From NCBI GenBank assembly GCA_951406725.2, contig OX597831.1, positions 11,222,001 through 11,286,000 of the forward strand: a stretch of DNA of 64,000 bases, read 5' to 3'. Origin of the DNA: Octopus vulgaris. Its lineage: Eukaryota. The first letter of the stretch is position 1; the number at the start of each line of letters is the position of its first letter. The notes beneath the pieces were generated by a model. It was not told the DNA's origin and did no database searches. It worked only from the letters and a program-made list of their open reading frames with translations. This document shows positions 24,345-24,950 of this stretch, in pieces. Position numbers and translations under genes: made by a program.

Positions 24345-24950
24345 AAGGTGGCAATCTGGCAGAAACATTAGCACGTCGGGCGAAATGCTTAGTGATATTT
24401 TCTCTTTACGTTTTGAGTTCAAATTCCGCCGAGGTCGACTTTGCTTTTCATCCTTTCGAGTCGATAAATAAAGTACCAGTTACGCACTGGGGTCGATGTA
24501 ATCGACTTAATCCGCTTGTCCGTCCTTGTTTGTCCCCTCTGTGTGTAGCCCCTTGTGGGTAATAAAGAAACAGATATTTTGTGTCTTTACGTTCTGAGTT
24601 CAAATTCCGCCCAGGTCAACTTCGCCTTTCATCCTTTCGGGGTCGATTGAATAAGTACCAGTTATGCACTGGGGTCGATGCAATCGACTTTGTCTGACCT
24701 TGTTTGTCCCCTCTATGTTTAGCCCCTTGTGGGCAATAAAGAAATAAGAATCGTTAGCACGCCGGGCGTAAATGCTTAGCAGTATTTCGTCTGCCGTTAC
24801 GTTCTGAATTCAAATTCCACCAAGGTCGACTTTGCCCTTCATCCTTTCGAGTTCGATAAATTAAGTACCAGTTGCATACTGGGGTCGATCTAATCGACTG
24901 TTCCCTTCCACCAAAATTTCGGGCCTTGTGCCTAGAGTAGAAAAGATTAT
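24345..24950 (+). mobile_element. Three head-to-tail family A tRNA-SINE units; the first two end in the LINE-like tail, the third in an alternative tail
   Basis: B-box GTTCAAATTCC; central GCCTTTCATCCTTTCGGGGTCGATAAATTAAGTACCAG; tails ..GCCCCTTGTGGG(T/C)AATAAAGAAA and ..GGCCTTGTGCCTAGAGTAGAAAAG. Confidence 0.85.

Follow-up and report, generated by a model that had tools for sequence, protein, structure and literature searches.

A short interspersed element of Octopus vulgaris shares its 3′ end with a long interspersed element of the L1/Tx1 group and is a candidate for mobilisation by that lineage

Pairs in which a short interspersed element (SINE) and a long interspersed element (LINE) have a 3′ tail in common are already well known, as is the swapping of tails among SINEs. 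In the L2 systems that were tested, a shared tail predicts partnership (PMC4176376; the name TX1 in that paper denotes a mutant and not the clade). In a survey of 58 SINEs with LINE tails only three belonged to the L1 clade (PMC3472496), and the L1-clade pairs tabulated in PMC3747384 are those of maize/sorghum and Chlamydomonas, the table including neither a Tx1 nor a cephalopod pair. Members of the Tx1 clade are known to target microsatellites (PMC4494074). Octopus repeat surveys describe abundant SINEs and active L1-Tx1 families, and no pairing between them was seen there (PMC13282606, PMC8967140); SINEs account for 11.6% of the O. vulgaris assembly, in which 893 out of 900 recently active SINE families are unclassified (PMC13282606). 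Here we describe a SINE family and an L1/Tx1-group LINE that share their 3′ terminal sequence in a 64,000-nt stretch of the O. vulgaris genome (contig OX597831.1, positions 11,222,001 to 11,286,000), hereafter the window. A literature search that did not extend to subscription journals, to Repbase Reports or to the 1994 paper of Ohshima and Okada revealed no description of an octopus SINE paired with a Tx1-type LINE. What is new here is the partner clade, a 3′ end free of poly(A), and an animal as host.

The initial annotation of the window had placed the LINE 3′ end on the minus strand of 35121-35170, and we located it at 35124-35166. All seven SINE ends that it listed were present as well, five on the plus strand (24529-24570, 24703-24744, 32164-32205, 32352-32393 and 42528-42569) and two on the minus strand (25402-25443 and 54351-54394); nevertheless, the AATAAA motif ascribed to all of them is AGTAAA in the tails at 32.2 and 32.4 kb. 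Five further LINE 3′ ends, at about 14.7, 34.4, 38.4, 38.6 and 39.2 kb, bring the total to six. The BLAST search with the LINE end detected six of the seven SINE copies, with 81-84% identity across 38-45 nt, and the diverged tail at 25.4 kb was picked up not by this search but by a SINE query and a pattern search. The stretch common to the seven SINE copies and the six LINE ends comprises 43-55 nt (about 55 nt, with gaps, in one copy), which are the last part of a SINE tail of about 65 nt.

At consensus level, where the similarity had been expected to vanish if spurious, it persists. The majority consensus of five distinct LINE ends (the identical 38.4-kb copy was omitted) and that of the seven SINE ends are identical in 32 of 38 columns up to AATAA, and upstream of these columns agreement falls to 5 of 22. 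The match is colinear and ungapped and terminates at the same base, with the boundary between tail and flank at the same GAAA(T/C)A position in both elements. For each of the three SINE copies tested, the local score against the LINE 3′ untranslated region (UTR) was 49-53, compared with a shuffle maximum of 31-37, and none of 2000 dinucleotide shuffles reached the observed score; after removal of the AATAAA part the scores were 35-43, again reached by none of 2000 shuffles. Therefore, the similarity is homology and not chance. Chance or convergent similarity of two ends that are both rich in pyrimidines and have a poly(A) signal, as their T/C-rich composition and AATAAA might suggest, is effectively refuted by the shuffles and by the ungapped match to the same final base, and its probability is negligible. 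Of the 13 ends in the window, a degenerate pattern matched 12, and it matched nothing in 100 shuffles; since it was built from these copies, it is circular with respect to them. A poly(A) run is absent from all 13 ends (six LINE, seven SINE), as would be expected if the sequence rather than poly(A) were recognised. The shared 3′ terminal sequence, one mark of stringent SINE-LINE pairs, is a property of both elements.

We consider it probable that a young SINE subfamily captured the 3′ end of a Tx1-type LINE and is copied by that LINE lineage, probably by a sister subfamily of the one found here. A single template switch, between LINE RNA and SINE RNA, would account for the gain of the tail. 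The SINE RNA would be made by RNA polymerase III from an internal promoter, bound at its tail by the ORF2p of the LINE lineage, and copied by target-primed reverse transcription. Homology, terminal position and the L1/Tx1 group agree with the SINE-LINE partnership proposed in the initial annotation; that the LINE subfamily at 35-38 kb is the partner itself is made less likely by four fixed differences. At four columns (20, 26, 27 and 33) the base of all five distinct LINE tails was found in none of the seven SINE tails. Because of these differences, and because the specificity of zebrafish L2 is set by the loop (PMC4176376), we hold a sister subfamily or an ancestor to be a likelier working partner than the long copy found at 35-38 kb.

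The SINE is a non-coding, interspersed, high-copy element of about 230 nt. The search of the window with a SINE profile gave 30 matches, corresponding to the six LINE ends and 24 SINE pieces, and these pieces, along with 117,486-226,939 contigs in each DNA-type public run (see below), bear out its described abundance. One head and body occur with at least three tails, attached just past the same body position: the LINE-like tail in seven copies, and one of two related alternative tails in the 12 scored copies at 2.6, 2.7, 23.6, 23.8, 24.9, 30.1, 43.4, 43.9, 45.1, 51.8, 60.5 and 63.9 kb. The first part is common to the two alternative tails, and the last 15 nt differ. The alternative tails do not match the Tx1-type end (100-875 of 1000 shuffles score as well), and their partner LINE was not found within the window. 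Since the same head and body also carry these other, mostly older tails, we regard the LINE-like tail as a tail swap. Divergence from the body consensus is 5.8-8.7% in copies with the LINE-like tail (n=5) and 6.8-30% in the others (n=9), measured with a consensus weighted toward the LINE-like-tail subfamily (5 of 14 rows). The SINE subfamily and the LINE both look young, judging from this low body divergence and from an 877-codon LINE frame that was kept open; their copies in the window, where both appear young, are few in number.

The initial annotation called the element a tRNA SINE. Its head contains A- and B-box-like motifs, judged by eye against the usual consensus, and in the two heads that were folded the 5′ GGYGG pairs with CCGCC behind the B-like box. 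However, ARAGORN detected 0 tRNA genes, and Rfam gave for 23500-25600 no tRNA match but only chance matches of microsatellite level. A tRNA origin of the head is likely on the strength of the motifs. The body is unlike the BivaMeta and BivaMD sequences (MetaSINE, 66-bp Meta domain), as compared by eye only. Octopus tRNA-derived SINE families named OK, OR1 and OR2, of which OR1 and OR2 count as CORE-SINEs, were reportedly described by Ohshima and Okada in 1994; the present family may be one of them. The window also contains a second, unrelated SINE-like family, at 46466-46900 (plus strand) and about 15180-15270 (minus strand), which we take to be possibly a CORE-type octopus SINE. Its copy at 46.5 kb possesses a 197-nt tandem duplication, 93% matched, and ends beside (AT)n.

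The long copy of the LINE encodes an open frame of 877 codons (35425-38058), the product of which includes the domains RVT_1 (residues 240-488) and zf-RVT (residues 710-763). The frame is broken near 38.0 kb, and an upstream piece in another frame (37989-38147) aligns to residues 213-260 of a relative of 1111 aa. The region of the N-terminal APE endonuclease is mostly truncated in the long copy, while full-length relatives, with about 40-70% identity, carry PF03372. The best match in the PDB, which covers few LINE clades, is human L1 ORF2p (1.5e-49), against 1.7e-19 for R2. The nearest named relative is a protein of Argonauta hians, with 70% identity across the reverse transcriptase region. 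The annotation of 20 relatives gave only the names 'hypothetical protein' and 'exonuclease III', and no named Tx1 reference was among the matches. The LINE belongs to the L1/Tx1 group, in line with the Tx1 label of the initial annotation as far as RVT_1, zf-RVT and the best match to human L1 ORF2p reach. Tx1 proper is the part of that label which we infer, because the LINE targets a microsatellite, as Tx1 members do. Elements of the Tx1 clade have an ORF1 with zinc knuckles; the ORF1 of this LINE is absent from the 64-kb window.

The LINE ends have a common layout, in which AATAAA is followed by GAAA once or twice, two bases and the target. The subfamilies are 82-93% alike in aligned UTR columns. 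Within the final 45 columns 34-36 are identical between subfamilies, and the adjoining poly-T bins of the UTR are far lower; in three of four comparisons, however, a block that lies further upstream is as well conserved as the end. The conservation of the terminus is suggestive and is not unique to the last 45 columns. The copy at 38443-38571 (minus strand) matches the end of the long copy including its homopolymer runs and has one extra GAAA, which may mean that a sibling inserted very recently or that the region was duplicated locally. Between 70 and 87% of the sampled LINE words were present in sequencing runs of three organisms (20 rows, nine studies), and no RNA dataset is on record as containing them. 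Pattern scans of viral, metagenome and prokaryote collections gave no more copies, and the protein-based locus searches confirmed 0 of 196, 0 of 25 and 0 of 125 candidate stretches. ORF2 relatives of about 70% identity (P0005, P0163, P0165, P0231 and P0283) occur in JGI/IMG metagenome-derived records, where they presumably represent animal DNA.

The window was also searched for other LINEs, in six frames and with a profile of 60 full-length LINE relatives, which would miss distant or decayed LINEs. Besides the known LINE it gave one weak match, at 44201-44422. This lies in a decayed LINE 3′ part (44140-45057, plus strand) with a CCHC motif, coding remnants with stops and a short 3′ UTR that ends in (AAT)n. 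The relic weakly resembles R2-type proteins, and on these weak matches we take it to be R4/Dong-like. This (AAT)n tract is also where a SINE with an alternative tail, on the opposite strand, ends. Compared with the LINE-like and the alternative SINE tails, the 3′ end of the relic is at shuffle level (84-917 of 1000 shuffles score as well), so no other LINE found within the window fits the SINE tail better; a better fit of another LINE clade in the genome is what the initial annotation had named as a refutation. This bears on the derivation of both tails from a third element of another LINE clade, or of the LINE end from the SINE, which we judge very unlikely. The LINE comparison was confined to the window, with no DNA added by the collection scans, and the ranges of identity between SINE and LINE (25-33 of 39) and among LINEs (30-37 of 39, non-identical pairs) overlap, as such an origin would allow. 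Nonetheless, the LINE subfamilies share with each other not only the tail but about 15 nt more upstream of it, which the SINE lacks, and the element that swaps tails is the SINE.

Several results weigh against the copying of the SINE by the Tx1-type lineage through its tail; they include the weighting of the body consensus and the four fixed differences given above, three of which sit in the apical hairpin or loop, and those that follow on folding, flanks and arrays. The initial annotation had suggested stringent recognition, and a check for a stem-loop shared by both ends. A weak stem and a 4-bp hairpin are predicted at the same position in both families, with the SINE register shifted by one base. 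The predicted LINE hairpin is AGCC/GGCU with a 6-nt loop, and that of the SINE is GCCC/GGGY with a 5-nt loop, in which the T/C variant (four versus three copies) is compatible with G-U and G-C pairing and keeps the stem. However, the fold z-scores range from -0.35 to -2.28 for five ends of 44-45 nt and are -0.40 and -0.10 for two ends of 60 nt. Two-sided changes were found in 0 of 10 LINE pairs and 1 of 11 SINE pairs. The same hairpin is predicted in both families, with weak z-scores, loops that differ and almost no covariation or compensatory change, and such folds leave stringent recognition weakly supported.

These weak statistics, and the clustering of the SINE/LINE differences in the loop, are what would be expected from relaxed mobilisation by the same LINE lineage. 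The tail would then be kept for its 3′ end, with AATAAA and a short A-rich repeat pairing with the target, and ORF2p would not read the sequence or the hairpin. L1-clade elements are mostly relaxed (PMC3472496), and the crocodilian SINEU, which has poly(A), is assigned to Tx1-Mar without tail homology (PMC4494074). We nonetheless regard relaxed mobilisation as improbable here: the 13 ends have no poly(A), the motif is AGTAAA and not AATAAA in two of the SINE copies, and about 30 nt upstream of this motif are conserved independently.

The flanks of the LINE are uniform. The six LINE ends, which are alike in orientation, all lead into (TATC)n, with (TATC)2 within 15 nt of each against a background of 1.1%, and five of the six ends are found in one interrupted (TATC)n tract in the same orientation. 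The tract at 39561-39598 lies 5′ of the last LINE copy with no LINE tail preceding it; therefore (TATC)n is the target of the LINE as well as its flank, and the LINE prefers this repeat as a target. At least two LINE subfamilies are present among the five insertions in 34090-39598, which marks an insertion hot spot. Very long trinucleotide and tetranucleotide microsatellites with spurious long open frames also occur elsewhere in the window (5784-8655, 28542-29681 and 56227-58494).

The initial annotation had stated that the SINE copy at 54350 runs into TA/ATCT repeats like the LINE, and had proposed to see whether copies with the LINE-like tail are enriched next to TAGA/TA. The first statement holds, and of the seven copies this is the only one to run into ATCT: (TATC)2 within 15 nt was found at one of seven LINE-like tails, that of the 54.35-kb copy, and at none of 12 alternative tails. 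For the second, a looser copy-level test of the flanks gave three of seven LINE-like tails versus three of 12 alternative tails (p=0.62). At locus level, a (TA)n or (TATC)n tract lies within 30 nt at three of five loci with LINE-like tails versus none of 10 other family loci (Fisher p=0.022, background 4.2%), in a small test devised post hoc after the copy-level null. What the SINE shows of the target preference is at most a loosened form, seen in tracts of (TA)n and in a junction into a further SINE unit that recurs.

Such junctions were followed in public sequencing data. Contigs of four public runs from three organisms, three of the runs being of DNA type, were placed on 32195-32470, and numbered 220,472, 226,939, 117,486 and 7,750 per run. 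Contig depth across the SINE tail was about equal to that across the body in the three organisms; because the data are contigs, depth is not a copy number. The SINE subfamily with the LINE-like tail is clearly abundant in all three organisms. Loose contig ends at 32328 mark the point from which the alternative tail also branches. In the window, three of the seven LINE-like tails run directly into another SINE unit that begins inside the head, and joints from the tail back to 32207 are present in all four runs. The loose contig ends past the tail have, in the three DNA-type runs, a consensus that is the start of another SINE unit and not TATC (846-1589 contigs, agreement 0.43-0.45); these junctions give no proportions, because contigs collapse identical microsatellite flanks. 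The head-to-tail junctions at 24570-24580, 24744-24760 and 32205-32215 show two fixed starts inside the head. Those in the public runs sometimes carry a repeated short GAAATA-like unit. The head-to-tail joining may reflect self-targeting or a multimeric master. Multimeric SINEs are known from other systems (PMC10702118).

An alternative tail terminates the three-unit array at 24345-24947, which lies between the copies of a direct repeat of 15 nt. Since the alternative tail is the terminal one within the direct repeat, the LINE-like tails in this array may be cargo. Extended to the whole family, this would mean that the tail was captured from a Tx1-type LINE but has since spread within transcripts of several units, for which another LINE, such as RTE, would prime at a different tail, or by tandem duplication at DNA level. 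The direct tail-to-unit runs, their recurrence in all four public runs and the end of the 24.3-24.9 kb array are in agreement with such a spread, as is the expansion of RTE-BovB described in cephalopods (PMC10294476). However, the LINE-like tail is terminal at four of the five loci that hold such tails, and the boundary between tail and flank is at GAAA(T/C)A, as in the LINE. The array itself either was mobilised as a single transcript, with priming by another LINE, or arose by insertion of tail-bearing copies into the head of an older copy, and nested insertion explains it equally well. We therefore hold the spread of the tail as cargo to be unlikely. A near-identical A/T-rich word of 15-17 nt borders alternative-tail SINEs on both strands (23800-23816, minus; 24328-24346 and 24946-24963, plus); these words are about 0.5 and 1.1 kb apart and may represent chance, a preferred target or a decayed head.

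Copying by the Tx1-type lineage, probably a sister subfamily, remains our preferred explanation of the shared tail. We put forward more tentatively, as possible rather than probable, that this lineage reads its own RNA stringently via a 3′ hairpin without poly(A), that the SINE, as one of the most abundant subfamilies in octopus, burst through tail capture, and that by means of the LINE endonuclease it inserts into TA/TATC microsatellites and into fixed head sites of its own family, building head-to-tail arrays. The features of the window are listed in Table 1.

Table 1. Coordinates of the SINE units, LINE copies and associated repeats in the window.
Feature	Position	Strand	Remarks
SINE unit with complete head, body and LINE-like tail	24345..24572	+	
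Head-less SINE unit with LINE-like tail	24573..24746	+	abuts preceding tail
Third array unit, same head and body, alternative (non-Tx1) tail	24747..24947	+	
15-nt direct repeat, left copy	24328..24342	+	14/15 identical to 24946-24960; candidate target-site duplication around three-unit array
SINE copy with LINE-like tail	25400..25546	-	about 30-nt deletion in body; (TA)n on 5′ side
Head-less SINE unit with LINE-like tail	32029..32207	+	
Second unit of dimer, LINE-like tail at terminus	32211..32395	+	
5′-truncated SINE copy with LINE-like tail	42434..42570	+	then short (TA)n
SINE copy with LINE-like tail	54349..54540	-	(TA)n upstream; (TA)n then (TATC)n downstream
Long LINE copy, 5′-truncated, L1/Tx1 group, sole long copy	35124..38143	-	end of endonuclease region, reverse transcriptase, C-terminal CCHC zinc finger, 3′ UTR
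3′ UTR of long LINE copy	35124..35424	-	from stop of open reading frame to (TATC)n array
LINE terminal 43 nt common with SINE	35124..35166	-	predicted hairpin AGCC/GGCU, 6-nt loop, then AATAAA and GAAA
LINE 3′ fragment, 129 nt	38443..38571	-	100% identical to long-copy end (BLAST)
LINE 3′ fragment, second subfamily	38606..39046	-	last ORF2 codons and 3′ UTR
LINE 3′ UTR fragment, second subfamily	39202..39560	-	flanked on both sides by (TATC)n
LINE 3′ UTR fragment, more diverged	34404..34600	-	
LINE 3′ fragment, second subfamily	14680..15061	-	(TA)n on one side, (TATC)n on the other
(TATC)n/(GATA)n tract broken by five LINE insertions in single orientation	34090..39598	.	arrays 34090-34392, 34620-35121, 38144-38437, 38571-38603, 39047-39199, 39561-39598

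If this more tentative reading is true, the octopus SINE would be, within the pair compilations cited above, the first to share its tail with an animal L1/Tx1 element, and stringent recognition would persist in the animal branch of a group that includes the relaxed mammalian L1. Whether stringency was the ancestral state of L1-group LINEs, with a later relaxation to poly(A), is a question that rests on three plant and algal SINEs of the 58 pairs (PMC3472496, PMC3747384). A small, directly testable system would be provided by an animal element of the L1/Tx1 group that lacks poly(A), has a conserved end of 45 nt and shares that end with a SINE. The pairing would also point to what probably drove much of the octopus SINE burst.

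Similar to the octopus elements, UnaSINE/UnaL2 and ZfL2 have a shared terminal stem-loop followed by a short repeat in place of poly(A). They belong to the L2 clade, their recognition was shown experimentally, and the loops of the partners are alike, whereas the octopus loops differ (PMC4176376, PMC3747384). Mollusc SINE families that swap tails likewise combine one head and body with several tails; however, the partners of these bivalve SINEs are CR1, CR1-Zenon, L2 and Nimb (PMC4824008, PMC11481361), and the main text of PMC11481361 does not mention Tx1.

Among the Tx1 families, Kibi, Koshi and the crocodilian (TTCC)n/(TTTC)n elements resemble the octopus LINE as L1/Tx1-group LINEs inserted in a microsatellite in one orientation. 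Their targets are (TC)n, (TTC)n, (TTCC)n and (TTTC)n and not (TATC)n, and no SINE partner was noted for them (PMC4494074). The crocodilian SINEU/Tx1-Mar is similar in that a SINE was assigned to a Tx1-clade partner. SINEU differs in its snRNA heads, its poly(A) tails and the 3′ half of SINEU-1, for which no LINE match was found, and it was paired by the shared target (PMC4494074). The octopus pairing, in contrast, is based on a common tail, with a target shared only loosely.

The plant and algal pairs, ZmSINE2/ZmSINE3 with LINE1-1_ZM (maize, sorghum) and SINEX-3_CR with L1-1_CR (Chlamydomonas), are comparable in having a tRNA-type SINE with a 3′ end of about 45-80 nt in common with an L1-clade LINE, a LINE end more conserved than the remaining UTR, and a predicted hairpin (PMC3472496, PMC3747384). 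Their LINEs are L1 proper, and their hairpins of -11 to -18 kcal/mol show compensatory changes (PMC3472496, PMC3747384). The octopus pair, by comparison, comes from an animal and its LINE targets microsatellites, its predicted hairpins are of -5 to -8 kcal/mol with almost no covariation, and its ends carry neither poly(A) nor poly(T).
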